A model generated the notes under the pieces. The model saw only the letters and a list, made by a program, of their open reading frames with translations, was not told the DNA's origin and ran no database searches. Source: Minisyncoccota bacterium (GTDB lineage Bacteria; Patescibacteriota; Minisyncoccia; Phycocordibacterales; WO2-35-19). From it: 64,000 nucleotides of DNA. The translations under genes were made by a program, and so were the position numbers. This document shows, piece after piece, positions 1,101 through 61,099 of the stretch (positions within the stretch are counted from its first letter, which is position 1; each line of letters begins with the position of its first letter). Location: assembly GCA_041664625.1 (NCBI GenBank), contig JBAYKK010000003.1:4331-68330 (forward strand). The letters are read 5' to 3'.

Positions 1101-2234
1101 CTACCCCAATTCTTCGTGAGAAAATACAATAGAGAGAAGTTCCCTAGCGATTTGGTCGGCTGCTTCGGGTTTGAAAAAGTTTTTGGCACTGACTGTCATT
1201 TTTTCTATTATTTCTGGGCTTTCAATAATTCTTTTTATTTCTGCTAAAAGGATATGAGGTTTTAAATTTTCTTCTTGGATCACTGAGCATGCGCCCGCTT
1301 TGGCGTAAGCAAAAGCGTTTTTGGTCTGGTGATTTTCGTTGGAATTGGTGATGGGTATTATGATAGAAGGTTTGCCCCAAGAAGCTATCTCAAATATGGT
1401 AGAACCGGCACGACTTATCACCAAACTAGACACTCCCGCTGCCATACGCATTTCCAAACTATTTAAATAACCAAAAGGTTTGTATCTTTTTTTGTTGGAA
1501 TTTTCCAAGAGAATAGCCGAGGCTGATTCTTTGATCACCTCGATGTTTGCTCCCCCGGTTTGATGTATAACTTGAAAATTTTTGACCAAATCTGGCAGGA
1601 TATCTAAAATAATATTGTTTATTATCTCAGCTCCTTGTGAACCGCCCATAATAAATAGAGTTGGCACACTGTTATCAAAATCAAAAAACTCAGCTGCGCC
1701 ATTATCAAGAGGCGTTAATCTTTCTTGCAAAACTGGTTGCCCGGTGTAAGCGGTTTTTTCTTTGGGGAAATATTCGGCTGCTTCTTTGTATGAAAGGGCT
1801 ACCCGATTGGCAAATTTACCAGCCCATTTGTTGGCTCTCCCGGGGGCCGAGTCAGATTCATGAACAAAAACAGGGATACGCAAAAGTCTGGCCGCCAAAG
1901 TCACAGGGAAACTACCATAACCGCCTTTGCTGAAAACTACATCGGGGTAAATATCAAAAATATCCAAAAGAGCACCCAAGCTCCCCCAAAGGGTTTTGAA
2001 AAAATCAGTGAAATTTAGTATCGAAAAATATTTGCGCATTTTGCCGGCAGTGATTTTTTTGAATTCGATATTATGGTCATAGAGTAGGCCGGGGTTGTAA
2101 GGAGAGGGGGCAAAGAAAAACATTTCCGGTGGTAAAAACTTTTTTTCTTTGGCAATTTTTTGGATCGATTCAGCGACAGCTATGATCGGATAAAAATGGC
2201 CTCCTGTACCTCCGCCTGTAAAAATTATTTTCAT
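1101..2234 (-). CDS. murG: UDP-GlcNAc:lipid I N-acetylglucosaminyltransferase MurG
   Basis: 377 aa; N-term MKIIFTGGGTGGHFYPIIAVAE glycosyltransferase-28 signature; dcw synteny with ftsW/mraY. Confidence 0.9.
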   Translation of the reverse strand: MKIIFTGGGTGGHFYPIIAVAESIQKIAKEKKFLPPEMFFFAPSPYNPGLLYDHNIEFKKITAGKMRKYFSILNFTDFFKTLWGSLGALLDIFDIYPDVVFSKGGYGSFPVTLAARLLRIPVFVHESDSAPGRANKWAGKFANRVALSYKEAAEYFPKEKTAYTGQPVLQERLTPLDNGAAEFFDFDNSVPTLFIMGGSQGAEIINNIILDILPDLVKNFQVIHQTGGANIEVIKESASAILLENSNKKRYKPFGYLNSLEMRMAAGVSSLVISRAGSTIFEIASWGKPSIIIPITNSNENHQTKNAFAYAKAGACSVIQEENLKPHILLAEIKRIIESPEIIEKMTVSAKNFFKPEAADQIARELLSIVFSHEELG

Positions 2235-3370
2235 TTAGTTTCGCGAGTTATTTTTTTGTTACTTCTGGATATATTCATTATAAGTCCGGCTTCAGATAAA
2301 GTGATAAGCAGGGCTGTCCCACCATGGCTTATAAATGGCAAAGGTATGCCTGTCAAAGGTAGGACCCCGATCATCCCGCTTATGTTTATAAGCGCTTGGG
2401 ATATAATAAGTATAACAATTCCCAAAGCCAAAAGTCTACCGAAGTCATCGGGCGCTTTTGATGATATTTTTAAACCTTCTAAACTAAAAATAATGAAAAT
2501 GGCGATGATGCAAAAAGCTCCAACGAAACCAAATTCTTCGGCTGCTACCGCAAAAACTGAATCCCCAACTGGCTCTGGTAAGTAATGAAATTTTTGGATA
2601 CTTTGACCAAATCCCCTACCCCAGATTTGGCCGGAGCCGACGGCGATGAGCGATTGATTCAATTGGTAACCACTCGTCTGACTGTTTATGCTGGGGTGGA
2701 TCATCACGTCAATCCTCTGTTTGATGTAAGGTCTGGTGAAATAAAGAAGCGCCAACATTGTTATGCCTCCTATTACTATAATCAAAATGTGCCGCCACTT
2801 AGCTCCGGCTGTTATGTACATAGCCATAGATGCAAAAATAATAACGGCGTAAGTGTCAGTGTCTGGTTGAGCCAAAAGTAATATTCCCAATATGCCCATG
2901 AATATAGCAAATGGCCAAAACCCCCATGAGAGTGTCCCCACTTTTTCTTTTAACCTGGCTAGCCAAGCGGCGAAATAAACAATAAAAGCAATTTTCAAAA
3001 GCTCGGCTGGTTGAAAAGTTATAAAACCCAAATCAATCCAACGTTTGGCTCCTCCGTGCTCCATGCCTACACCGGGTATAAAAACTAGGAGAGTTAACAA
3101 AAATGAGCCTACAAAAAAAATAAAAGCGTATTTTTTCCAGATGTGGTAGTCAATTTTGGCAAAAAAGAGACAAGTCAAAGAGCCTAAAAATAAACCCCAA
3201 AAAAGTTGGGTTGAAGCTATGTTTGAAAATTTGATCTCGTCTCGAGCTAGTACTCCAAGTGAAGCCGAGCTAAAAATAAAAAAACCACCTACCGCAAGGA
3301 TAATAGTTAAAATCAAAAATGGTCTGCTTATTTTGCCGGTTTTTATAGTCATATGATTTAGCGAAATCAT
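2231..3370 (-). CDS. ftsW: SEDS family peptidoglycan polymerase / lipid II flippase FtsW-RodA
   Basis: 379 aa polytopic membrane protein, 4-nt overlap with murG, between mraY and murG. Confidence 0.85.
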   Translation of the reverse strand: MISLNHMTIKTGKISRPFLILTIILAVGGFFIFSSASLGVLARDEIKFSNIASTQLFWGLFLGSLTCLFFAKIDYHIWKKYAFIFFVGSFLLTLLVFIPGVGMEHGGAKRWIDLGFITFQPAELLKIAFIVYFAAWLARLKEKVGTLSWGFWPFAIFMGILGILLLAQPDTDTYAVIIFASMAMYITAGAKWRHILIIVIGGITMLALLYFTRPYIKQRIDVMIHPSINSQTSGYQLNQSLIAVGSGQIWGRGFGQSIQKFHYLPEPVGDSVFAVAAEEFGFVGAFCIIAIFIIFSLEGLKISSKAPDDFGRLLALGIVILIISQALINISGMIGVLPLTGIPLPFISHGGTALLITLSEAGLIMNISRSNKKITRETK

Positions 3371-4511: not shown

Positions 4512-5444
4512 TTATTGATTAATGTATTCTACACTAGCTTGCATCAATTTTAAAACATCCGTAAACCTACCTTCTTCGCTAGAGCCTAAAACTGAAATAA
4601 TAATAGGCCGATTGAGGCCAGCATCAAAAGCCACTACCAAATTACCCCCAGCCAAATCAGTGTAGCCGGTTTTGGAAGCGATGATGTTTGGTATTTGGTC
4701 TATGATGGTGTTGGTATTTTCTGATGGATAAGTTTTTTGGCTACTTTCAAATTGTAAATTTTTGTAACGAGTGGCTTCTAAAATCTCAGGATAGTTTTTG
4801 AGAGTGTATTGAAAAAGTGTGGTCATGTCTCGAGCTGAGCCGTAAGCTCCGCCTCTATCTACTTGAGTATCTAAACCATGTTCATTAAAAAATTTACTAT
4901 TGGAAAGGCCGATTTTGCTAGCGATGTCGTTCATTTCTTTTATAAATGATGAGTCCCCTTTTACCCCAGCTACTGCCGCTAAAGCAAACGCTCCATCATT
5001 GGAAGAAGTAAGTAATGTAAAATCTCTGAGGTCTTGGGCTTCCCAAGTGTCCCCCACTACCAATTTTGAATCACCTTCTGGGAGCAAATCTCCACTCGTT
5101 ATTTTTATTTTTTGGTTGTTTTCTAATTTACCATTTAAAGTAACGGCCGTCATAACCTTGGTAAGTGAGGCCAAAGGCAAAGGAGTATCTGGATTTTTGG
5201 AAAATAATTCTCGGTTGTTTATCACATCCCAGACCATTACTGCTTTGGCTTCCAAACTTATGTCTTGGAAAAAGTCTGGATTTTGGACTGTCTCCGCCTT
5301 CACTTCTTTATTCAAAGCATTCTCGCCTATGATCATCAAACTAAAAATCAAAATGGAGAAAATAAATAAATAAGAAAGTACATGGACGAAGTATTTTGTC
5401 CTGTTTTCTTTGTTAAATATTTTTTTGAAATTATTCGGTGGCAT
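4512..5444 (-). CDS. D-alanyl-D-alanine carboxypeptidase (peptidase S11, PBP5-like)
   Basis: N-terminal TM anchor; SxxK (ASLTK), SxN (SSND), KTG (KTGYT) motifs. Confidence 0.75.
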   Translation of the reverse strand: MPPNNFKKIFNKENRTKYFVHVLSYLFIFSILIFSLMIIGENALNKEVKAETVQNPDFFQDISLEAKAVMVWDVINNRELFSKNPDTPLPLASLTKVMTAVTLNGKLENNQKIKITSGDLLPEGDSKLVVGDTWEAQDLRDFTLLTSSNDGAFALAAVAGVKGDSSFIKEMNDIASKIGLSNSKFFNEHGLDTQVDRGGAYGSARDMTTLFQYTLKNYPEILEATRYKNLQFESSQKTYPSENTNTIIDQIPNIIASKTGYTDLAGGNLVVAFDAGLNRPIIISVLGSSEEGRFTDVLKLMQASVEYINQ

Positions 5445-5973
5445 TTTGGGTATCTTCGGTTGCTTTTATTTTACTTTTAAACATTTCAAATTCTGGCAAT
5501 TCTTCTACTTTTTTTATTCCTAAATGAGCCAAAAGGTTTAAACTGCTCCTATATCTAAAAACCCGCAGATCTTTGGTATCTGCCTCTTTTTCTACTAAAC
5601 CGCGCACACAGAGGTTTCTCAATATAAAGGTAGAATTGACCCCCCTTATAAAATCAACCTCTCTACGGCTGACTGGCCCATTATATAGCACAATGGCCAA
5701 GGTTTCGAGGCCGGCTTTGCCTATCTCTCGGCTCATTTCGTCTTTGGCTATTTTTTCTATTAAGTCTTTAGTTTCTGATGATGTCGCCAAGCTCACTTCT
5801 TTTTCGGTCTGGACCAAACATAAACCTCGGCCAGCCAAAGACTCCGAGAGTTTTTGCAAAGACTCTTTTATTTCTCCTTCTTTTGTTTCCAAAAGTTCTG
5901 CCAATTTTTTGATTTCGATTGGCTCGTTTTTATAAAAAAGTATGGCTTCTATTTGATTTTCAATTGTGATCAT
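5431..5973 (-). CDS. scpB: segregation and condensation protein B
   Basis: 180 aa, ScpB winged-helix pattern, immediately downstream of scpA. Confidence 0.8.
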   Translation of the reverse strand: MITIENQIEAILFYKNEPIEIKKLAELLETKEGEIKESLQKLSESLAGRGLCLVQTEKEVSLATSSETKDLIEKIAKDEMSREIGKAGLETLAIVLYNGPVSRREVDFIRGVNSTFILRNLCVRGLVEKEADTKDLRVFRYRSSLNLLAHLGIKKVEELPEFEMFKSKIKATEDTQNATE

Positions 5974-5987
5974 GTTTTTTTCTTTCT

Positions 5988-6055
5988 CCCCTCTCCTGCA
6001 TCTAGGCGATTCACCAGAATCGAACAGGCGATGAAGAGGGGTTGGGGGTGAGGTT
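5988..6055. repeat. inverted-repeat copy A (54-nt core 5988-6041), reverse complement of copy B
   Basis: core cccctctcctgcatctaggcgattcaccagaatcgaacaggcgatgaagagggg is the exact reverse complement of 6832-6885; extension ggttgggggtgaggtt overlaps the scpA stop codon. Confidence 0.9.
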
Positions 6056-6791
6056 AATAATAAGTGGGTACTCCTGTGCTTTCACTTTCGATTTCAATAT
6101 CGGCAAAATGTTTGTTTTGATTGACTCGAACCGATCCTTGTTTAACCAATTCTAGCATAGCCAAGAAGCTTACTATAACATTCACCTTTTCTGCTTTGCC
6201 CATACCAGAGAAATCGGAGAAGCTGGTTTTTAGGCTGGTCTTGATACGCTCGGTTAGTTTATCAACCATCTCTTCCAAACTGATTATTTTGCCCACTACC
6301 ACTTTGGGTAACTGCTCTACTTTTTGGGGCATATTTTGCAATACCTCGTGCAAGGCATTTTGCAAAGAAATCAAAGTGATATCAGGAGTCGGTGAAAAAA
6401 TCACTTTTTGGATTTTACTGTCTCTTGCGAAATACAAAAAGTTGCCAAACATATCCCCCAAACCTATCGACAATTCTTTGTATTTTTTATAACTCGTCAG
6501 TCGGTTTTCTAGATCTTCGATACTACCCTGCTCTTCTTCGGTGAGAGGTAAGTTTGGCAAAAGCGATTTGGATTTGATGAGTAGAAGCGTTGAAGCGACC
6601 AAAATAAAATCAGCCGAGTCAGACATCGGGAATTCTTCAAAAGATTTGATATGTTCAATAAACTCGTCGGCGACTTGAGAGAGCGAGATGTCGCTTATGT
6701 GAAGTTTCCTTTTTTCTATGAGCTCTAGTATGAGCTCTAATGGGCCTTCTACCTCCCCTACTTTGACTTTAAAATCTTCTGGCATAAGCAT
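6054..6791 (-). CDS. scpA: segregation and condensation protein A
   Basis: 245 aa; LELILELIEKRKLHISDISLSQVADEF ScpA N-terminal signature. Confidence 0.8.
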   Translation of the reverse strand: MLMPEDFKVKVGEVEGPLELILELIEKRKLHISDISLSQVADEFIEHIKSFEEFPMSDSADFILVASTLLLIKSKSLLPNLPLTEEEQGSIEDLENRLTSYKKYKELSIGLGDMFGNFLYFARDSKIQKVIFSPTPDITLISLQNALHEVLQNMPQKVEQLPKVVVGKIISLEEMVDKLTERIKTSLKTSFSDFSGMGKAEKVNVIVSFLAMLELVKQGSVRVNQNKHFADIEIESESTGVPTYY

Positions 6792-6801
6792 ATTTTAACA
6801 C

Positions 6802-6885
6802 AACCTCACCCCGTTTGCCTTTGGCAAACTGCCCCTCTTCATCGCCTGTTCGATTCTGGTGAATCGCCTAGATGCAGGAGAGGGG
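6802..6885. repeat. inverted-repeat copy B (54-nt core 6832-6885) with extra 20-bp internal hairpin
   Basis: Perfect reverse complement of 5988-6041; left extension aacctcacccc shared; contains gtttgcc-aaa-ggcaaac hairpin absent from copy A. Confidence 0.9.
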
Positions 6886-6946
6886 AAAAATAATGTTTGC
6901 ATTTTAAAACAGAGTATGCTATAATATAAGACAGGAGAGTATAAAC

Positions 6947-10968: not shown

Positions 10969-11928
10969 TTAATATTTGTAATTTATCCAAATGGCAAAAA
11001 TGGACATGGGCAAAAGTTTTAAATTTTGCTGATTGATAGCTAATTCACCGACCTCGATATTACCCCGCCCGCCATTGCTACGCTCAGGCGTTAGCGGGCA
11101 GGCTCCTAAGTCCTTAGTTATTTCAGAAAGTAAATTGGCTACAGAAATTGATGAAAGCTCAGTTGAATACATATTGAAAATTATAAAGAGTGGGTTTTCA
11201 CTCAAAATGGCTCGGCAAGCTTGCAGGAGTTCTGGTAGTTGTTCTTCTATTTTCCAGACCTCGTCTTTGGGTCCTTTGCCGTAACTTGGCGGATCCATGA
11301 TGATCGCATCGTATTTTTTGCCGTTTTTTGCTTCTTTTTTTATAAATTTGATAACGTCATCTACGATCCATCTGATCGGCGCGTCTTGGAGGCCTGAGAG
11401 TTTTTGGTTTTCTCTTGCCCAATCCACTGATGGTTTGGAAGCATCTACATGAGTGACTTTGGCTCCCCACTTCGCTGAAGCTTCGCGGGACAGGCCCGCT
11501 TTGGCGGCAACTAAACTTGCAATTCCGGTGTAGCCAAATAGATTTAAAATATTTAATTCTTTTTTTTCTTTCCCCTCCTTTTCATTCATACTTCTTAATT
11601 CATAATTCATAATTCTCTCCTCTATCCATTTCCATTGTGGGAATTGCTCTGGGAAAATGCCGATATGTTTGGAAGTATTTTTGAATTTAATTTTGGCTTT
11701 GATTCCCCCAATTCCAATATCTACTACTGTTTCCAGTTCTTTTTTGCATAATTCATGATTCCATATTCTTGCGTCATTTTTCTGCCACCAAGCTCTAGGC
11801 TCATTCCTCACGATTTTGACGCCGTTAATTTCTTCTAGTTTTTGCTTGTTGCCCGAGTCCAATAGTTTGTAACCTCCCATCTCCCCTGTCCATATTTTTA
11901 TATCTTTCATGATTTTACAATACCACAA
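10969..11928 (-). CDS. class I SAM-dependent RNA methyltransferase (RlmI/RlmK-like)
   Basis: LNLFGYTGIASLVAAKAG...VTHVDAS...DPPSY motifs; carries a ~16-aa insert MNYELRSMNEKEGKEK. Confidence 0.6.
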   Translation of the reverse strand: MWYCKIMKDIKIWTGEMGGYKLLDSGNKQKLEEINGVKIVRNEPRAWWQKNDARIWNHELCKKELETVVDIGIGGIKAKIKFKNTSKHIGIFPEQFPQWKWIEERIMNYELRSMNEKEGKEKKELNILNLFGYTGIASLVAAKAGLSREASAKWGAKVTHVDASKPSVDWARENQKLSGLQDAPIRWIVDDVIKFIKKEAKNGKKYDAIIMDPPSYGKGPKDEVWKIEEQLPELLQACRAILSENPLFIIFNMYSTELSSISVANLLSEITKDLGACPLTPERSNGGRGNIEVGELAINQQNLKLLPMSIFAIWINYKY

Positions 11929-14854: not shown

Positions 14855-15343
14855 TTGAGAAGAAAAAAGAGCCCACCTGGTTTCAATATACACCACCGCA
14901 AACCTCGGAGGTTTGGTGGTCAGACTACTGAAGAAAATATCTCGGTAGTGCGTCGGGTCGAGCATAAGGCCTGGAACATTCTCTTTGACAATCTCCCAGC
15001 TCATGATGTGGTCAGATTATTCAGGGAATATTGGGAAATATTTGGAAACGAATCTCGAGTAACCCATGAGATTCGGCAGATCGGTCTTTCGGTACTTGGG
15101 GAAATGGAAAATTTCCAAAAATACAAAGACTTGCTCTCTGAAGCGGAACTGAATCGCATCAAGAGAACTTTGAGTACGGAAAGGTCTAAACTGAGAAAGA
15201 GCCGAGCCTGGGGGGTGCTCTTTAGTGGCCTTTCTTTGGAGCAGATATTAGTCAAAATCAACGGGGTCTGGATTGATCCAGATTACAAGTTGGTTGCTGA
15301 AGTCACCCAAGCCACTAACGTAAAGTTAGAGGCGAGATTTTAA
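14855..15343 (+). CDS. HNH-like endonuclease domain protein (Cys-less variant)
   Basis: TTG start with RBS agaggtgg; NIHHRKPRRFGGQTTEENISVVRRVEHKAWN fits the HNH core HH..P..GG...N...H. Confidence 0.5.
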   Translation: MRRKKSPPGFNIHHRKPRRFGGQTTEENISVVRRVEHKAWNILFDNLPAHDVVRLFREYWEIFGNESRVTHEIRQIGLSVLGEMENFQKYKDLLSEAELNRIKRTLSTERSKLRKSRAWGVLFSGLSLEQILVKINGVWIDPDYKLVAEVTQATNVKLEARF

Positions 15344-15360
15344 AGAAGTATCTACAAAAA

Positions 15361-15386
15361 AGGAGCGCTGGGGTGAGGCGCTTCTT
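15361..15386. terminator. bidirectional terminator between convergent HNH and histidine kinase genes
   Basis: aggagcgc-tggggtgag-gcgcttct hairpin with T-runs on both strands. Confidence 0.6.
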
Positions 15387-17523: not shown

Positions 17524-17628
17524 ATTTTTCTCCTTTCCTCAAGAAGAGCCTAGCTAGCTGCTCTCCCATCCAAAGTACTGGGTTTGCCTGTCTGTGTTTA
17601 GTATGGTCTTAAAATACTTTTTGTCAAT
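17524..17628 (-). promoter_or_regulatory. conserved promoter plus ~70-nt 5' leader of peptide gene 1 (copy 1 of 2)
   Basis: ~85% nt identity to 19068-19172; TTGACA-16/17-cATAcT; leader hairpin GAGAGC...GCUCUU. Confidence 0.6.
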
Positions 17629-17648: not shown

Positions 17649-18896
17649 ATGTTATTCCCTGAAATAAAAATTGAAAAAAATACAATTAATGGTGCTATTG
17701 TGTATAAACTTTATAAAAAAGATGCTCCTTTGGCCATAAGGTTTACTTTTTTTGCTGGTTCTCGTTTTGATGAAAAACCCGGAGTGGCTCATTGTCTAGA
17801 ACATTTATTTGTAGCTTCTACTTCTTTTTTTAAATCAAAAGATCAGATAGCTAAATATTTGGAACAATTTGGTGGAAATTTTTCAGCGACAACAGGTAAT
17901 GATGTTTTAAGAGTAAATATTGAAATTTCTGATAAAGAAGATATTGAAAAAGCTCTTTTGTTAATGAAAAGTTTTTTAGATAGAAGAATATTTGATAATA
18001 ATGTTTTTGAAAATGAAAGGAAATCTATTTTGTCAGAATTTCTAGAAAAGAAAAGTAATCCGTCTAAATTTGTTTGGGAATTACGAAGGAAAAATTCTTT
18101 TGCAGGAACACCTCTAGAGAACTCTATAATTGGTACAGAACAGGAGGTATTAAATATAACTGTTGACGATGTGATTAAACATCATGATAAAAATATAACA
18201 TCAGGAAAACTAAACATAGTAATTGCTGGAGATTTTGAAGAAAATATTGTTGATAACATAAAACAAAATTTACCTGAAATAAAAATTGAAAAATACTTAG
18301 GTCTGGATAATATTTTTTTTCCAAAAATGTTGCCAAATAAAAATCGCAATAAAATAATTGAAAAAAATATAGCCGACGGAAAACAGGCGTACACCGTTTG
18401 TAGTTTGGCTATATTTGACAAATTATCTGTAAAAGAAAAAATAGCTTTAAAGATATTCAATAATATATTTGGAGTGGGTCGCGGTTCTGTTTTGTTATCA
18501 AACCTTAGATACAAAGAGTCTTTTGTATATTCAGCTTTTTCATCGTTAAATGGGGGCTATGATTGGAGTATTTTTGATATTTATTTTTCTTCAAATTATC
18601 AAGACATTAATAAGTGTATTGAGATAATAAAGCAACAAGTAATAGAAATAAAAAATGGTAAAATCAGTAAAGAAGAATTTGAAAATGAAAAAAATAGAAT
18701 TATTAAAAATTTAAAAAGAGAATTGCAGACAACAAATGATCTGGTCAATTTTTGTGAACAGCTTTTTATATTTGAAGAAAATCTTAGTCTTAAAATGTAT
18801 AAAGACGCATTCGATGATTTAAAATTGGAGGATTTCTTGATTGTTATTAATAAATTTGTTAAAGAAGATCAATTTAACGTTGCAATTTGTAGATAA
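17649..18896 (+). CDS. M16 family zinc metallopeptidase (pitrilysin/insulinase-like)
   Basis: 415 aa; inverted zincin HxxEH motif (AHCLEHLF); M16 N/C domain lengths. Confidence 0.7.
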   Translation: MLFPEIKIEKNTINGAIVYKLYKKDAPLAIRFTFFAGSRFDEKPGVAHCLEHLFVASTSFFKSKDQIAKYLEQFGGNFSATTGNDVLRVNIEISDKEDIEKALLLMKSFLDRRIFDNNVFENERKSILSEFLEKKSNPSKFVWELRRKNSFAGTPLENSIIGTEQEVLNITVDDVIKHHDKNITSGKLNIVIAGDFEENIVDNIKQNLPEIKIEKYLGLDNIFFPKMLPNKNRNKIIEKNIADGKQAYTVCSLAIFDKLSVKEKIALKIFNNIFGVGRGSVLLSNLRYKESFVYSAFSSLNGGYDWSIFDIYFSSNYQDINKCIEIIKQQVIEIKNGKISKEEFENEKNRIIKNLKRELQTTNDLVNFCEQLFIFEENLSLKMYKDAFDDLKLEDFLIVINKFVKEDQFNVAICR

Positions 18897-19067: not shown

Positions 19068-19172
19068 GGTATTATCCCTTTCCTCAAGGAAAGCTCAGCT
19101 GGTGCTCTCCTATCTAAAGTACAGGGGGTTGCCTGTCTGTGTTTAGTATGGTATTAAAATATTTTTTGTCAA
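19068..19172 (-). promoter_or_regulatory. conserved promoter plus 5' leader of peptide gene 2 (copy 2 of 2)
   Basis: Near-identical to 17524-17628, including TTGACA, the -10 and the leader hairpin (GAGAGC...GCUUUC, stem kept by G:U/G:C swaps). Confidence 0.6.
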
Positions 19173-42368: not shown

Positions 42369-44828
42369 TTAGATCACGAAGTTTATTATCTTGTTTGGAA
42401 TAAAAATGATTTTTTTGGGCTCTTTCCCTTCTAGCCATTTTTGGGTCTCTGGCAGGCTTAAAGCCTTTGTTTTGGCCTCATTTTCGGATATGCCCACCTC
42501 TGCTTCAAATTGAGATCTGATCTTGCCGTTTATCTGCACTACTATAACAGTATTTGTTTCTTTGATTTTTGAACTATCAAAAATAGGCCATTCTTCCAAA
42601 TGAATTGAAGAGTCATGCCCCAGGTTAGACCAAATTTCTTCTGTCATATGTGGTGCAAAAGGTGCTAATAACTTCAAAAATGTCTCAAAGTTTTCTTTAG
42701 CTACTAGCTGCTGGTTGCTGGCTACTTCCTTTTCGAGTTCATTTAGCAAAATCATCATGGCCGAAATAGCAGTATTGAATTTATAATTTTCAATATCCTC
42801 GGTTACTTTCTTTATAGTTTTATGTAATAGATTTTCAAGTTTTTGGTTTGGTTTTTTTGCGTCTGATTTTTCTTCAATTAATTCATGATTCATACTTCTT
42901 AATTCATTTCCCATTTTCCACACTCTTTCCAAAAATCTTTTTATGCCCACTACCCCACCTATGTCCCACGGATACTGACCAGTCTCATTGTATGGTCCGA
43001 TAAAAGCGAGGTACATCTTGACTGTATCTCCGCCAACTTTTTCTACTAATTCATCTGGGTCTATCACGTTGCCTTTACTCTTGCTCATCTTTTGACCGTC
43101 AGGTCCCAAGATCAATCCTCTGTTCATTCTTTCTGTGAATGGTTCGGCTTCGTTTACCAATCCCATATCAAAAAGAGCTTTGTGGAAAAATCTGGAATAC
43201 AAAAGATGCATATTGGTATGTTCGGCACCACCCGAATATCTGGCAACTGGCATCCAGTTTTTCATTTTTGCTTTGTTGGCGAATTCTTTTGAGTTGGTTG
43301 GGTCGGTGTAGCGGTTGAAATACCAAGAAGAATCTACGAATGTGTCCATTGTGTCGTATTCAGGTGTCCAACCTTTGCCAAATATTTTTTCTACTCGGTT
43401 TTTTAATTCTTTGGAAGTAGTGAGCGGTGAATCCCCTTTTGGGCTAAAATCTACATCTTCGGGTAAAAGCCAAGGTAAGTGCTTATCGGGAATCATGTAA
43501 GCTTGACCTTGTGGATCATAAACTACCGGTATAGGGCAACCCCAGTATCTCTGGCGACTCAAGAGCCAATCACGTAATTTAAATTTAGTTACTTTTTGGC
43601 CAAACTTTTCTGTGATTTTCTCTCGCGCTTCTCCACTCGACATTCCATTAAGCTCACCAGAATTTGTGTTAATTCCCTCATCAATAAAAGCTTTATTAGA
43701 AATGTCACCACCGCTTATTACTTCAACTATTGGTAGGTTGTATTTTTTGGCAAATTCAAAATCGCGGTCGTCATGAGCGGGCACAGCCATCACTGCGCCG
43801 GTACCATAATTACCCAGCACATAATCAGCTACGAAAACTGGCACTTCCTCTTTGTTGGCTGGGTTTATAGCGGTCACTCCTTCCAATTTTACTCCCGTCT
43901 TTTCCTTCTTGGCGTCAGTCCTTTCTATTTCTGTTCTATTTTTTGTTTTTTCTGCGTATTCTTTGACTTTTTCATAATTCCTAATTCCTAATTCATGATT
44001 CAATATTTTCTTTACTATTTCGTGTTCGGGGGCTACCACTAAATAAGTAACACCAAAAAGCGTATCGGCTCTTGTGGTGAAGACTTCTATTTTTTCCCTT
44101 ACTACTGTCTGCTTACTGCTTACTACTTCAAATTCCAATTCCGTCCCTTCTGACTTCCCTATCCAATTTCTTTGCGCCGTCTTTATTTCTTCCGGCCACT
44201 TCAAATCTTTCATATCAGAAATCAATCTCTCGGCGTAATCAGTAATTTTGAAAAACCATTGTTCCAAGTCTTTTTGAATAACTTCGCTATCACATCTCTC
44301 GCACTTGCCATCTTTGACTTGTTCGTTGGCCAGCACAGTTTGGCACGAAGGGCACCAATTAACAGAGGCCTTTTTTTTGTAAGCTAAATCTTTTTTATAA
44401 AATTGTAAGAATAACCATTGGGTCCATTTATAGTATTCAGGGTCGGCGGTGATGATTTTGCGGGACCAATCAAAAGAGTTGCCCATACTTTGGAGTTGTT
44501 TTTCCATGTAGGTAATATTTTCGTAAGTCCATTTTTTGGGATCCAAACCTCTTTTGATGGCAGCATTTTCGGCCGGTAGCCCAAAGGCGTCAAAACCGAT
44601 TGGCAGCATGACATTGTAGCCTTGCATTCTTTTGGTACGCGCAAAAATATCTGGCAGAGCAAAAGCGTACCAATGGCCGATGTGTAAATTGCCAGATGGA
44701 TAAGGGAATTCCATCAAAGCAAAAATATTTTTTTTACCAGGCACCTCGTCGGCAGTTTTGTATAAATTATCTTTTTGCCATTTTTCCTGCCACTTTTTTT
44801 CTATTTCTTTATGATTGTATGATTCCAT
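42369..44828 (-). CDS. leuS: leucyl-tRNA synthetase
   Basis: 819 aa; HIGH (PYPSGNLHIGH) and KMSKS motifs, CP1 editing domain. Confidence 0.95.
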   Translation of the reverse strand: MESYNHKEIEKKWQEKWQKDNLYKTADEVPGKKNIFALMEFPYPSGNLHIGHWYAFALPDIFARTKRMQGYNVMLPIGFDAFGLPAENAAIKRGLDPKKWTYENITYMEKQLQSMGNSFDWSRKIITADPEYYKWTQWLFLQFYKKDLAYKKKASVNWCPSCQTVLANEQVKDGKCERCDSEVIQKDLEQWFFKITDYAERLISDMKDLKWPEEIKTAQRNWIGKSEGTELEFEVVSSKQTVVREKIEVFTTRADTLFGVTYLVVAPEHEIVKKILNHELGIRNYEKVKEYAEKTKNRTEIERTDAKKEKTGVKLEGVTAINPANKEEVPVFVADYVLGNYGTGAVMAVPAHDDRDFEFAKKYNLPIVEVISGGDISNKAFIDEGINTNSGELNGMSSGEAREKITEKFGQKVTKFKLRDWLLSRQRYWGCPIPVVYDPQGQAYMIPDKHLPWLLPEDVDFSPKGDSPLTTSKELKNRVEKIFGKGWTPEYDTMDTFVDSSWYFNRYTDPTNSKEFANKAKMKNWMPVARYSGGAEHTNMHLLYSRFFHKALFDMGLVNEAEPFTERMNRGLILGPDGQKMSKSKGNVIDPDELVEKVGGDTVKMYLAFIGPYNETGQYPWDIGGVVGIKRFLERVWKMGNELRSMNHELIEEKSDAKKPNQKLENLLHKTIKKVTEDIENYKFNTAISAMMILLNELEKEVASNQQLVAKENFETFLKLLAPFAPHMTEEIWSNLGHDSSIHLEEWPIFDSSKIKETNTVIVVQINGKIRSQFEAEVGISENEAKTKALSLPETQKWLEGKEPKKIIFIPNKIINFVI

Positions 44829-53204: not shown

Positions 53205-54221
53205 TTATTGTGATTTGCTAATATTTTTTTTGTATTCTTCTACTGCGGGCTGATCGTAGGGATTAATCTCAAGTAGTTTGGCCAACTCCAAAGTCACGTT
53301 TATCATAAAAGCCATAAAAATCCCCAATTCTCTTTCGGTTATTTTGTCCATCTCATATTTCATAAATGGTAAACCGGCTTTGTCATAAGCTTCAGAAACA
53401 TTTTTGTAAGCCACTGCGCTTATACTTCCCTCGATTTCATTTTTGGATTCTATAAAGACAGTGAATCTATTTTTGGGCCCACCCAAATAAAGCTCGAGCA
53501 TTGAATGTAAATCAGTAGGGCCGATAGAAACTGTCGGAGTGATGAGCGACAAACTTTCGGCAATGAGTTGGCGGCACCACTTACCCAAATCTTCGAGTTC
53601 AGAATTGAAAATAAAAAAATCTAAAATATTTAAACCTTGTTTGTAGTTATCAAAAATATTTTGAGCAAGTTTTTCTTGCTCGTCCCGCGAAGCTTCAGCG
53701 GAGTGAGACCCTTCTATAAAATCTTCAATATTTAAACCCGCAATAGAGAGTACGGTAGTATGAGCTATAGTAAAAGCGCTGAAACGTCCACCCACTTCAC
53801 CTTCCCCGCCTGCTATGCCAGCTTGGCGGGCAGGCCATTCCTTTTTTTCAATTTCTTTTTCTTCGGCTATTTGCCAAAGCGGACTATTTTTGGTTGTTAT
53901 GATAAGGGTTTGATTTTTTATTAATTCATCAAATTTTTGGTATAAAATATCAAAAATCTTTTTAAAAGTTTCTAGAGTCTCTACGGTTTGGCCAGATTTG
54001 CTGATCGCTATTAAAACTATTTCTGACAAATCGTTTATTTCATTTTTGACAATGCTCTCTATTTCTTCATATTCACGTGTATCGGGAGATTCGAGGAAAA
54101 ATAATTTTTTGTCGACTTCGGGTTTGTGCAAAGTCATCGCGTTCCATACCGCTTTGGAAGCCAAATCAGATCCACCGATACCAACTACAAATATAAATTT
54201 AGAATTTTTGTATTTTTCCAT
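53205..54221 (-). CDS. pgi: glucose-6-phosphate isomerase, short SIS-type (PGI/PMI)
   Basis: GIGGSDLASKAV and EVGGRFSAFT PGI signatures. Confidence 0.7.
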   Translation of the reverse strand: MEKYKNSKFIFVVGIGGSDLASKAVWNAMTLHKPEVDKKLFFLESPDTREYEEIESIVKNEINDLSEIVLIAISKSGQTVETLETFKKIFDILYQKFDELIKNQTLIITTKNSPLWQIAEEKEIEKKEWPARQAGIAGGEGEVGGRFSAFTIAHTTVLSIAGLNIEDFIEGSHSAEASRDEQEKLAQNIFDNYKQGLNILDFFIFNSELEDLGKWCRQLIAESLSLITPTVSIGPTDLHSMLELYLGGPKNRFTVFIESKNEIEGSISAVAYKNVSEAYDKAGLPFMKYEMDKITERELGIFMAFMINVTLELAKLLEINPYDQPAVEEYKKNISKSQ

Positions 54222-55086: not shown

Positions 55087-55692
55087 CTATTTTTTGTATT
55101 GCATGATGCCGGCTCCCTTGATCTCAGTTTGGCCCGCTTTGCGTATAAATTTTTTATTGACTTCGGGTACGAAATTGAAATGCGGTGAACTGTCCAAAGC
55201 CTCGGCAATTTCATCCAAATCTTGTTCGGCTGTCACCCAAGCTGTGCCAAATTTTTTCCAAATATCAAATGGTTTGGAAAAAGATTTCAAAGTTTTTTCA
55301 CCCGAATCTAAAAAATATTCATGATAAAAAGACAAAGCTAGTTCGCGAGGATTTTGGTAAATCGGATCACGGAAACGCAAGACTGAGTGATTGGTTTTGG
55401 AAATCGCTCCCCAAAATCCATTTATTTTGAAAACACACAAAACATGGTCGTAATCTTTTTTTAAATCCTTAACTTTCAAGTCTAGCAAATAGTTTTCTAT
55501 TTTATTTTGTTGTAAACACAGGCAAGCCAAAATAGCTCCTTCAAAGCAGTGCATCCTTCCTGCTTCCAAAACTCGCTTGGGCGACATATAAGTCTCTCCC
55601 CTTTTTTCAAAATTGAAAGGGGTTTTGTCCAAAAAATCCTGCACCTTGGCCGGCGTGTTGAGTTTTTTTATTATTTTTGGCAGTTTTTTCAT
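55087..55692 (-). CDS. transglutaminase-like cysteine peptidase fold protein (putative)
   Basis: Start at MKKLPK; GRMHCFEGAILACLCL fits the GxCxxFAxxL catalytic-Cys motif, later DHVLCVF (His) segment. Confidence 0.4.
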   Translation of the reverse strand: MKKLPKIIKKLNTPAKVQDFLDKTPFNFEKRGETYMSPKRVLEAGRMHCFEGAILACLCLQQNKIENYLLDLKVKDLKKDYDHVLCVFKINGFWGAISKTNHSVLRFRDPIYQNPRELALSFYHEYFLDSGEKTLKSFSKPFDIWKKFGTAWVTAEQDLDEIAEALDSSPHFNFVPEVNKKFIRKAGQTEIKGAGIMQYKK

Positions 55693-55698
55693 GTTTGT

Positions 55699-55743
55699 CC
55701 TCACCCCTTATCCCCTCTCCTTGGCAAGGAGAGGGGGCGAGCA
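55699..55743 (-). repeat. promoter-hairpin-RBS cassette, copy 1
   Basis: cctcaccccttatcccctctccttgGcaaggagaggggGcgagca; 2 mismatches vs 56521-56565; supplies a GGTGAGGA Shine-Dalgarno 5 nt before the ATG. Confidence 0.8.
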
Positions 55744-55744
55744 C

Positions 55745-56161
55745 TTATCGCATTATTTCAGGTATTTTATTACGAGGAATTTTTCTTACTTTAATTTTAT
55801 TGTGACCCCCAAGGTAAAGCTTTGCTAGGCGATGCAATCCATCAAGAATACGCCATCTACCTTTATTCTCCATAATATCAATTGGATGGTTTATATCTGC
55901 CTCTTGTATTTTACGAAAGTGAGTTGGTTCATTTTCCGGGTATTTTATAACTTCCCAGGGCGTTAAATTAAATTCTGTTAAATTAAATTTATTTTTGCCT
56001 CCCCTGTCCCAAAATGGAATATCAAAATGCCAGATTAATTCCTGAATATCTATTTCCGTCACCGGTTCATTAAGTTTCCAAACTTTCTTTGGATTCCAAG
56101 CGGTGCCGATACCAACATCTTTTATTATTTGTGGTATTTTGTTGTTTTTATTGTTTTCCAT
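55745..56161 (-). CDS. ParB/sulfiredoxin-like nuclease-fold domain protein (putative)
   Basis: 138 aa; GRWRILDGLHRLAKL resembles the ParB-like DGxHR motif. Confidence 0.4.
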   Translation of the reverse strand: MENNKNNKIPQIIKDVGIGTAWNPKKVWKLNEPVTEIDIQELIWHFDIPFWDRGGKNKFNLTEFNLTPWEVIKYPENEPTHFRKIQEADINHPIDIMENKGRWRILDGLHRLAKLYLGGHNKIKVRKIPRNKIPEIMR

Positions 56162-56513
56162 TATTTATTTCATTATAAATCTTTTTCAATACTTTTTCTA
56201 TGTCATTTTCTACCTCCTCATTTAAAAATCTAATTGTTGTGTATTCAAGTTCTTTAAAAAATTTGTCTCTCACCGCATCGTATTCTTTTGCTTCTTTGGT
56301 ATTATGTATTTCTCCATCAAGCTCAATGATTAATTTTTTCTTGGCGCAATAAAAATCCAAAATATAACCACCGATGCTGTATTGTCTTTTAAATCTAAAA
56401 CCTAGTTTTTGATTTCTTAATTTCTCCCACAGCAATTTTTCTTGAGGGGTAGCTCTTTTGCGTAATTCTTGTCTCCTGTCTCCTAATTCAAATATGTTGT
56501 GAATTAATCTCAT
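56148..56513 (-). CDS. DUF559 / Vsr-like PD-(D/E)xK endonuclease domain protein
   Basis: GGYILDFYC...LIIELDGEIH core typical of DUF559; start taken at the internal ATG (MRLIHN). Confidence 0.6.
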   Translation of the reverse strand: MRLIHNIFELGDRRQELRKRATPQEKLLWEKLRNQKLGFRFKRQYSIGGYILDFYCAKKKLIIELDGEIHNTKEAKEYDAVRDKFFKELEYTTIRFLNEEVENDIEKVLKKIYNEINNGKQ

Positions 56514-56520
56514 AAAAATC

Positions 56521-56602
56521 CTCACCCCTTATCCCCTCTCCTTGACAAGGAGAGGGGACGAGCAGTATCTACATTATACTAAAATCTAGATTGGGGTGAG
56601 GA
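56521..56602 (-). repeat. promoter-hairpin-RBS cassette, copy 2, with distal inverted ggggtgagg partner
   Basis: cctcacccc(56521)...cccctctccttgacaaggagagggg hairpin...TATAAT (as tacattatac on +)...ggggtgagg(56594). Confidence 0.8.
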
Positions 56603-60631: not shown

Positions 60632-61099
60632 TTAATACTCAATCGTAAATGAGAAAGAAATAGAGGCGTCGTTTTCGGGCAGGCCGGAGGGATTGTCTTT
60701 GTGCAAAACTAAAGTGGCGGGGCCGATATAGGTCTGCGGTATCTTGATGAGAGCCTTGAAGGGCACGAAATTTTCGGTCATCCAGTTGATTTCGCCGGTT
60801 TGGGGGTCAGGCTCCGCTTGAGCTATGCCTTTGGCCAAAACTTGGCCTTTTTCATCCAATACCTCTATAGGGAAAGAAGCTTCAAAAAACCAAAATCCAC
60901 GAGCCTGCCCTATTACACTAAATTCTTTGCCAGTGACAGCTCCAGGGAAAGGTAATTCTACTTTTATCAAATCGACAGTCGCATTTTTATAGGTGATGGC
61001 TTGGGCGGGTGCTTTTGGACTGTTTGAAGTAAAACGTATCGCGAATATTATGGCGATGAGAATTAGTAACATTATACTTATTAAATATACTTTTTTCAT
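60632..61099 (-). CDS. secreted hypothetical protein (Ig-like/Gmad2-like fold suspected)
   Basis: Signal/anchor MKKVYLISIMLLILIAIIFA; beta-rich. Confidence 0.45.
   Translation of the reverse strand: MKKVYLISIMLLILIAIIFAIRFTSNSPKAPAQAITYKNATVDLIKVELPFPGAVTGKEFSVIGQARGFWFFEASFPIEVLDEKGQVLAKGIAQAEPDPQTGEINWMTENFVPFKALIKIPQTYIGPATLVLHKDNPSGLPENDASISFSFTIEY

Follow-up and report, generated by a model that had tools for sequence, protein, structure and literature searches.

The scpA locus and the two arms of its inverted repeat

This analysis concerns an inverted repeat that brackets the gene scpA in a 64-kb stretch of DNA from a Minisyncoccota bacterium; this whole stretch is called the window here. 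The bracketed gene had been predicted to be scpA, and the Pfam match bears this out (PF02616, E=5e-20). The next gene is scpB (PF04079, E=1e-36), and both lie on the minus strand. The two arms of the repeat are called copy A and copy B, and the features of the locus are as follows.

5431..5973, minus strand: scpB, preceded by the 80 nt of copy A
5974..6053, plus strand: copy A, filling all 80 nt from the scpA stop to the scpB start
5974-5987: complement of the copy A tail, AGAAAGAAAAAAAC on the minus strand, directly before the scpB ATG at 5971-5973
5988-5996, plus strand: copy A stem Y, C-rich, CCCCTCTCC
5997-6032, plus strand: copy A loop-1 insert of 36 nt, holding a CGATTC-ACCA-GAATCG hairpin at 6007-6022
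6033-6041, plus strand: copy A stem R, G-rich, GAAGAGGGG
6042-6044, plus strand: copy A loop 2, TTG
6045-6053, plus strand: copy A mirror block H, GGGGTGAGG, adjoining the scpA stop codon
6054..6785, minus strand: scpA, 243 aa from the ATG at 6785, with a longer reading from 6791; ScpA is identical to the NCBI protein
6792..6803, minus strand: extended -10-like box TTGTGTTAAAAT, 6 nt upstream of the scpA ATG, a putative promoter element
6804..6895, minus strand: copy B, in inverse orientation to copy A
6804-6812, read on the plus strand: copy B complement of H, CCTCACCCC
6813-6831, read on the plus strand: copy B loop-2 insert with a GTTTGCC-TTT-GGCAAAC hairpin
6832-6840, read on the plus strand: copy B CCCCTCTTC
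6841-6876, read on the plus strand: copy B loop-1 insert
6877-6885, read on the plus strand: copy B GGAGAGGGG
6886-6895, read on the plus strand: copy B tail AAAAATAATG

The original prediction of a 54-nt exact reverse complement holds, since 5988-6041 (+) matches 6832-6885 (-) with 0 mismatches. That such a match is not due to chance is confirmed by 100 dinucleotide-preserving shuffles, which gave 0 matches. A repeat search extends the arms to 5980-6041 and 6832-6893 (62 nt, 97% complementary, with 790 nt between them), and they form the longest inverted repeat of the window. The 54-mer has no further match at up to 3 mismatches anywhere in the window. Beyond the core, both arms share the predicted end GGGGTGAGGTT (6045-6055, with the reverse complement at 6802-6812) and differ in the linker only: copy A has TTG where copy B has CAGTTTGCCAAAGGCAAAC. 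The linker of copy B contains the extra palindrome that had been described, a 7-bp hairpin GTTTGCC-TTT-GGCAAAC, and the internal CGATTC-ACCA-GAATCG hairpin and the CCCCTCT/AGAGGGG pairing are likewise present. On the side of the scpA stop, block GGGGTGAGG of copy A (6045-6053) touches the stop codon (6054-6056), as claimed. On the other side an arm does lie near the scpA start, but the spacing from the first in-frame ATG (6791) is 12 nt instead of 11. Measured from the ATG at 6785, the start that is used by NCBI and supported by relatives, block CCTCACCCC of copy B (6804-6812) is 18 nt away.

Mis-joins at repeats are possible in assemblies of metagenome-assembled genomes (MAGs), so that an assembly or chimera artefact has to be weighed. 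The same structure is present in an NCBI MAG contig (L001) and in an ENA MEGAHIT contig (L002), each more than 99.98% identical, although possibly built from shared reads; the ENA contig shows 99.99% identity to the window and an identical repeat structure. The MAG that matches the window is GCA_041663065.1, Candidatus Paceibacterota, with 38% GC. Thus three assemblies agree, and the gene order is the same as in all relatives. Because the arms are shorter than ordinary reads, we regard an artefact as extremely improbable.

Each element is 80-92 bp long and consists, in this order, of an A-rich tail, stem Y, loop 1, stem R, loop 2 and block H. Both copies have a 36-nt loop 1 with nested hairpins; in loop 2 they differ, copy A having the canonical 3 nt there and copy B a 19-nt hairpin. 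The space occupied by copy B is bounded by the extended -10 box of scpA on one side and by the -35 of a divergent promoter-like site (6896-6925) on the other, which faces an 84-aa zinc-ribbon open reading frame (ORF). Folded as single-stranded RNA, with Watson-Crick pairing only, the elements give compound hairpins of -26 kcal/mol (z = -2.7) for copy A and -36 to -38 kcal/mol for copy B, and the predicted fold places the Y/R stem at the base of each element. No known RNA family was found by Rfam gathering thresholds, and a relaxed scan gave noise only (E > 1). A tRNA-like origin was rejected after ARAGORN found nothing. There is no T-run after either hairpin and no promoter-like site inside either copy.

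Empty sites in related lineages and transcription of scpA

Six related lineages, whose ScpA proteins are 81-86% identical, were compared (L003, L004/5, L126, L127/8, L129/130 and L131/2). The gene order aspS - scpA - scpB - dacA-like - mraY is kept in all six, and scpA is a syntenic housekeeping gene, not a passenger. From the scpA stop to the scpB ATG there are 4-13 nt in every one of the six (for example, TAA-aatt-ATG), and neither the 54-mer nor an element of the scpA type is present at the scpA locus of any of them. These empty sites indicate that both copies are lineage-specific insertions.

A -10-like box (TGnTAAAAT or a close variant) is found exactly 6 nt before the scpA ATG in the window and in all relatives. 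The normal scpA transcript should therefore not contain copy B. As judged from the sequence, the scpA mRNA would be leaderless and would start downstream of copy B. At 55 of the 59 gene starts inspected in the window the upstream DNA is AT-rich without a Shine-Dalgarno-like motif, often with a -10-like box (TGnTAAAAT/TATAAT) 6-9 nt before the ATG. This suggests that leaderless mRNAs are widespread across the window. The four exceptions with G-rich upstream DNA are scpA, scpB, a 201-aa gene and a DUF559 gene, and at all four the G-rich part is supplied by elements of the kind described here. A role of GGGGTGAGG as a Shine-Dalgarno sequence was rejected, since 55 of 59 starts have no G-rich motif and the other four adjoin elements. 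Genes 60632-61099 and 2231-3370 are further examples of such upstream DNA, and the box word TTGTGTTAAAAT is seen again upstream of several window genes.

The conserved box bears directly on one alternative that had been raised, namely that the arms are co-transcribed and pair over a long range (about -124 kcal/mol), so that scpA is looped out and the paired RNA serves as an RNase III substrate or blocks translation. Such a duplex would be 59 bp long, and there is no terminator-like site on the minus strand between aspS and copy B, so that read-through is conceivable. However, copy B ends at TTGTGTTAAAAT, the extended -10 box conserved in every relative, and its position 6 nt before the ATG puts the scpA start downstream of copy B. 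Moreover, aspS is separated from scpA by a divergent gene and promoter, and each arm is stable on its own fold. A long-range duplex is thus very unlikely.

The other alternative raised was an invertible segment, in which recombination between the arms would flip scpA together with its promoter and thereby switch scpB and the downstream cell-wall genes. A 54-bp perfect repeat (62 nt at 97%) is sufficient for homologous recombination, and DUF559 genes, whose flanks hold repeats of the same kind, show a 14-fold enrichment among the predicted targets of programmed inversion (PMC9881135). However, the DNA from about 10 kb upstream to 6 kb downstream of scpA contains no gene for a recombinase or invertase, and the three assemblies display one orientation, which is not what an inverton would give. 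Inversion would also uncouple an essential operon, in that scpB and the genes after it would be cut off from the promoter of scpA, and the perfect identity of the arms is explained equally well by recent copying. The scpA segment resembles invertons in that an inverted repeat flanks a promoter-bearing segment, but it differs from them in having no adjacent invertase, in arms that are copies of a dispersed repeat and in the essential gene inside. We consider programmed inversion improbable, though occasional RecA-type inversion across the 54-bp identity could still take place.

Structural likeness to BoxC/PIT/TM_ECO repeats

The architecture of the two copies points to a known kind of repeat. 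BoxC has been known in E. coli since the 1990s, with work by Maher and co-workers in 2000 (as cited in PMC4666352). TM_ECO motifs are the same as BoxC and PIT elements and follow the pattern CCCTCNCCC-N3-6-GGGNGAGGG-N3-GGGNGAGGG (Holder et al. 2015, NAR 43:10126, PMC4666352). According to that study there are 3610 of them in 262 proteobacterial genomes; they are always intergenic, and close inverted pairs are common, accounting for 10 of the 23 copies in K-12. They have no promoter or terminator activity, they form a triplex in vitro but none detectable in vivo, and they are tied to local genome variability, with no function or mobilising protein known. For phages and plasmids, Holder et al. 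reported no occurrence of the E. coli motif.

In the scpA copies, CCCCTCTCC and GAAGAGGGG pair at 8 of 9 positions, and GGGGTGAGG against GAAGAGGGG gives 8 of 9 allowed triads (G*G-C, A/T*A-T), in both copies alike. The 'weak terminal inverted repeats' CCCCTCT...AGAGGGG of the original prediction are thus really the Watson-Crick stem of a BoxC/PIT/TM_ECO motif and not transposon ends, and its 'cctcacccc' end motif is really the mirror, or third-strand, block. A sequence-agnostic detector of Y-R-H triplets (8-nt blocks, at most 1 mismatch each) found exactly four sites in the 64 kb and 0 in 20 shuffles. The four sites are copies A and B and two motifs that we call family 2, and all of them are intergenic. 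The family-2 features are listed here.

55698..55743, minus strand: family-2 motif 1, CCCCCTCTCCTTG-CC-AAGGAGAGGGG-ATAA-GGGGTGAGG, stopping 6 nt short of the 201-aa gene's ATG
56148..56513, minus strand: DUF559 gene (PF04480, E=4e-35), Vsr-like endonuclease with an E-x-D-G-x-x-H...D motif
56519-56564, minus strand: family-2 motif 2, ending 5 nt before the DUF559 ATG
56593-56601: extra complementary arm GGGGTGAGG beside family-2 motif 2

The family-2 motifs, like E. coli TM_ECO, show 9/9 Watson-Crick pairs and 9/9 allowed triads. They are direct copies, 86% identical and 821 nt apart, with canonical short loops and a register one base off TM_ECO. In the plus reading the pair is TCCTCACCCC-TTAT-CCCCTCTCCTTG-nn-CAAGGAGAGGGG, with end words in common with the scpA copies. 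The whole of 56519..56601 folds at -53 kcal/mol (z = -8.4).

The likeness of the scpA copies to BoxC/PIT/TM_ECO includes the 9-nt C-rich stem, the complementary G-rich stem, the mirror G-rich block and the T opposite an A-T pair. The words themselves are nearly the same, CCCCTCTCC / GGAGAGGGG / GGGGTGAGG against CCCTCTCCC / GGGAGAGGG / GGGTGAGGG in E. coli. Both kinds of element are intergenic, occur in inverted pairs, go with variability of the locus and have no known function or transposase. The differences are also clear. The register is one base off the published consensus (CCCCTCTCC...), and there is one mismatch each in the stem and in the triad set. Loop 1 is a nested 36 nt against 3-6 nt, and loop 2 of copy B is 19 nt against 3 nt. 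In the window, CCCTCACCC is absent and CCCTCTCCC occurs once only, in coding DNA. The host is a 38%-GC Paceibacterota genome, whereas the TM_ECO census covers Proteobacteria; a complete essential gene lies between the two scpA copies, whereas the members of an E. coli pair are tens of nucleotides apart; and the scpA element adds an A-rich tail ending at the start codon. The repeat is thus of a known kind, and the scpA variant is new in its expanded loops, its host from the Candidate Phyla Radiation (CPR), its pairing around an essential gene and the evidence from empty sites.

Other classes of small repeat fit less well. The original prediction favoured a miniature inverted-repeat transposable element (MITE) inserted on both sides of scpA. 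The insertions in opposite orientations stand, as the six related lineages without either copy attest, but the identity as a MITE does not. Like Correia, ERIC, RUP and Nezha elements, the scpA copies are small, non-coding, structured insertions at gene boundaries, for which co-transcription and altered expression of neighbours are possible. Unlike them, they have no transposon-type terminal inverted repeats, target-site duplication, related insertion sequence or transposase, and the AGAAAG... tail and the CCTCACCCC end are not inverted repeats of each other. REP/REPIN-RAYT systems are similar in having short, structured intergenic palindromes that often occur as inverted pairs. If the link to DUF559 discussed below holds, they are also similar in having a few protein genes flanked by a repeat that is scattered elsewhere. 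However, the associated protein would then be a PD-(D/E)XK Vsr-like nuclease (DUF559) instead of an HUH Y1 transposase, and the triplex motif has a third, mirror-symmetric block which REPs lack. No gene of the Y1 (IS200/IS605-like) RAYT Pfam family was found from about 10 kb upstream to 6 kb downstream of scpA.

The pattern CCTCACCCC-N1-25-CCCCTCT-N10-40-AGAGGGG was searched in GTDB species representatives and in IMG/VR contigs. The register of the window proved to be widespread, with at least 120 loci and at least 155 instances in at least 10 phyla among the GTDB genomes. The matches listed include Chloroflexota, Cyanobacteria, Acidobacteriota, Bacteroidota, Planctomycetota, Proteobacteria, Gemmatimonadota and one Nomurabacteria CPR genome. 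IMG/VR contigs contain at least 120 loci with the same pattern. Among the matches listed, the stem is at least 2 pairs longer than specified in 86% of the 155 instances, as compared with about 6% expected by chance. Loop lengths in these 155 instances cluster at 2-7 nt, with long inner (loop-1) inserts in 9% and a loop-2 hairpin in 5%. One IMG/VR contig of 43.5 kb has 15 copies of CCTCACCCC...CCCCTCT...AGAGGGG, and a second has 7 in a 12-kb stretch. The motif-rich viral contigs among L135-L254 include IMGVR_UViG_3300020057_000061 (L141, L144, L170, L180, L208, L238) and L199.

Further copies of the exact variant had been proposed as a check, which gave none: a 26-nt core has 0 matches in GTDB representatives and JGI metagenomes, a stem-anchored gapped pattern gave 2 matches, both chance, in GC-rich coding DNA, and the 3.7 kb of L002 beyond the window contain no copy. 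The nearest kin are on a contig of a close relative (L255), which encodes a 201-aa protein 89% identical to that of window 55087-55692. At a different locus, L255 has two elements with a short loop 1 and modules like those of the scpA copies, flanking a DUF559 gene. Their loop-2 hairpins, CAGTTTTCC-gcaa-GGAAAAC and ATCTGCC-ttc-GGCAGAT, differ from GTTTGCC-ttt-GGCAAAC of copy B in 3 of 7 pairs, each changed on both sides with none broken. The tails are also alike, AGAAAGAAAAAATAATG in L255 against AGAAAGAAAAAAACATG, and read AGAAAGAAAAAATA-ATG in L255, AGAAAGAAAAAAAC-ATG at copy A and AAAAATAATG at copy B. The shared hairpin and tail modules point to a propagating family. On the viral contig L266, GTTTGCC-tcc-GGCAAAC takes the corresponding place in a different motif, again with a DUF559 gene downstream. 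The scpA copies are most readily understood as a derived subfamily whose distinguishing mark is the 36-nt loop-1 insert. This insert is older than the duplication of the copies, since it is common to both, and the subfamily was found nowhere else in the GTDB representatives and JGI metagenomes searched. At L255 1660-1700, a 19-nt tandem duplication GGGGTGAGGTAGTTTATAA extends over an element end and the adjacent -10-like box, and it may be the footprint of a slippage or insertion process.

Two of the relatives, L126 and L131, contain other triplex-type motifs in the aspS-scpA spacer, which makes this spacer a recurrent site of landing or retention. Upstream of scpA, L131 has a perfect, purine-rich mirror repeat GGGGGAGGAAAGGAGGGGG (1400-1460), and L126 has CTCACCCC-TA-CCCCTCTCT-taaatt-AAGAGAGGGG (1110-1200) in the orientation opposite to copy B. 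This raises the question of whether the copies are exapted cis-regulatory structures kept for tuning scpA and scpB expression, with copy B as a supercoil-sensitive structure and copy A as a hairpin between the two cistrons, either setting the ScpA:ScpB ratio or making the mRNA more stable. Copy B does lie exactly between the extended -10 box of scpA and the -35 of the divergent promoter, the RNA fold of copy A lies directly after the scpA stop, the copies are closer together than random insertion predicts, and the motifs of L126 and L131 add to this. On the other hand, such a motif is missing from 4 of the 6 related lineages, and in all of them scpA and scpB are tightly coupled; PIT/TM elements have no promoter or terminator activity in E. 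coli (PMC4666352); neither hairpin is followed by a terminator-like T-run; and the same kind of element adjoins unrelated genes. A regulatory role is therefore unlikely in our view, though better placed than inversion or an RNA duplex.

Taken together, we consider it likely that the arms each represent a single copy of a small GC-rich repeat belonging to the BoxC/PIT/triplex class and that both are lineage-specific insertions, selfish or neutral; they are probably not a device specific to scpA. Several observations weigh against this reading. The loops of 36 and 19 nt do not agree with the definition of the motif (3-6 nt for loop 1 and about 3 nt for loop 2; 1-6 nt in ITxF). Triplex formation by the scpA copies is for this reason a conjecture, and no stable triplex forms in vivo even for the canonical motif (PMC4666352). 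No target-site duplication is visible, or can be defined, at either junction. Only two copies of the exact variant are known (in the window, L002, GTDB representatives and JGI metagenomes). Two copies 790 bp apart are not what random insertion would be expected to give, and in 3 of the 7 lineages compared, that of the window and 2 of the 6 relatives, there is a triplex motif upstream of scpA. The last two points leave room for site preference or for selection, that is, for function.

On the reading of the arms as inserted repeats, copy A would have entered the 4-nt scpA-scpB spacer after the split from the sampled relatives, and copy B would have entered in inverse orientation between the -10 box of scpA and the divergent neighbouring promoter. 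The 54-bp identity would stem from recent copying or gene conversion. Copy B would lie outside the normal scpA transcript, and copy A would be transcribed between scpA and scpB and form its hairpin there. Initiation at scpB may then be independent, or may follow once a terminating ribosome has opened that hairpin. As side effects, scpB would be parted from scpA by 80 nt with a stable hairpin, GC-rich and structure-prone DNA would separate two divergent promoters, and the 54-62-bp inverted repeat could support occasional inversion or instability.

DUF559 genes and the hairpin-plus-mirror motif

In the window, the family-2 motifs bracket the DUF559 gene together with a 138-aa ORF that has no Pfam match. 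The slot between a DHODH-like gene and the 201-aa gene contains DUF559 alone in L255, msrA and msrB in L256 and other genes in L257. The association of DUF559 with such motifs was followed in 39 loci from seven phyla and unclassified viral contigs. A DUF559-centred scan of IMG/VR supplied 22 loci, which were pooled with the other DUF559 loci described here. A flanking inverted repeat above the 95th percentile of the control (723 random intervals within the same loci) was found at 20 of 26 DUF559 loci, with a median score of 31 against 10. A triplex candidate lies within 250 nt of DUF559 in 24 of 27 loci, on both sides in 14, and the density of candidates is 4.33/kb in DUF559 flanks against 0.38/kb in the remainder of these loci. 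A second set of 12 plasmid or chromid loci gave the same picture, with candidates at 10 of the 12 (4.0 against 0.56/kb); its loci come from cultured bacteria, namely Synechocystis, two Deinococcus species, Photobacterium, Picosynechococcus, two Pseudanabaena, Sphingobium, Azospirillum, Sinorhizobium, Neisseria gonorrhoeae and Methylobacterium. At the two loci without a candidate, versions with a shorter stem can be seen, for example CCCCC-gattc-GGGGG-cta-GGGGG. Overall, the enrichment within 250 nt of DUF559 is about 7-11 times, to be read with some background of the Y-R-H detector in GC-rich DNA. The stem sequences are lineage-specific (CCGCCCCC, TCCTCCCC, CCTCCCTT, CCCCTCTC and others), yet the logic of a hairpin plus a mirror block, often with a loop-2 hairpin too, is kept throughout the DUF559 flanks.

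Among the 120 motif-selected genome loci listed, the only DUF559 ORFs are those of L090 (Bacteroidota) and L020 (Beijerinckiaceae), and both are flanked on each side, within 24-52 nt, by an inverted motif pair. In E. coli K-12, TM_ECO no. 9 lies 167 nt downstream of the DUF559 gene ycjD, and a motif-like hairpin extends over its stop codon. A motif-like hairpin encodes the YcjD C-terminus (...RRSPSP), and a partial copy of the ycjD 3' end lies between the gene and TM_ECO no. 9 (fabI-ycjD, L259 2321-2480). Loci flanked by hairpin-plus-mirror motifs, often as inverted pairs, are L260-L293, L020, L090, L255 and L259. DUF559 cassettes are often seen inside operons, such as hpa in two Deinococcus species, BREX in cyanobacteria and a carboxylase operon in Sphingobium.

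Some stronger forms of the association were rejected. Starting from arbitrary motifs there is no enrichment of DUF559, with 2 ORFs in the 120 genome loci listed and 1 weak match in the 120 viral loci listed. The bracketing of a gene other than DUF559 is not unique to scpA either, since on motif-rich contigs only 2 of 39 inverted pairs (301-1500 nt) hold DUF559. A fixed flanking geometry was dismissed as well, because the mirror arm points inward around some DUF559 genes and outward around others.

We found no published link of DUF559 to BoxC/PIT/TM in the literature available; DUF559 genes are 14-fold enriched among predicted targets of programmed inversion (Milman et al. 2023, PMC9881135). 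By analogy with REP/RAYT or with a MITE and its parent element, the elements may depend on, or derive from, DUF559 nuclease cassettes. Copying could rely on single-stranded DNA that readily folds and perhaps also on the nuclease of the resident DUF559 gene. It is conceivable, if tentative, that BoxC/PIT/triplex repeats are non-autonomous partners, terminal repeats or homing targets of DUF559 cassettes and make up a so far unrecognised pan-bacterial selfish system. In such a system the defining cis element would be the three-block architecture and not the sequence, and the resident DUF559 (56148-56513) would have made the scpA pair. The association is correlative as seen in the sequences and holds only when starting from DUF559 genes, and many of the viral DUF559 loci are orthologues. 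The one DUF559 protein studied, VsrA of Caulobacter, is a nuclease induced by the SOS response, with a proposed role in mismatch repair. These points weigh against the link.

Other repeats of the window are recorded here as observations in their own right. A 48-nt direct repeat (94% identical, 17580-17627 and 19125-19172) brackets a 415-aa gene (17649-18896), and each copy ends in a TAAAAT-containing stretch. A 24-nt inverted repeat CACTTCGCTGAAGCTTCGCGGGAC (96%, 11468-11491 and 53682-53705) has its arms 42 kb apart, and with a similar word upstream of gene 42369-44828 it may be another small dispersed repeat. A terminator-like hairpin at 15356-15385 (GGAGCGC-tggggtgag-GCGCTTC + TTTTC) after gene 14855-15343 has GGGGTGAG in its loop, which is probably a coincidence.

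Thousands of BoxC/PIT/TM repeats exist across bacterial genomes, but what they do, where they come from and how they are copied has not been established (PMC4666352). To this the scpA locus contributes a clear-cut insertion polymorphism, in a CPR genome that is small and AT-rich and against which GC-rich elements stand out, and it reveals that the three-block architecture tolerates large nested inserts. The flanking of DUF559 genes provides a concrete candidate for the missing protein partner, which is a more important outcome than the scpA pair itself, and it may explain why DUF559 is enriched among the targets predicted for inversion. An essential segregation gene enclosed by a 54-bp perfect inverted repeat also exposes the organism to a potential risk of inversion or instability.

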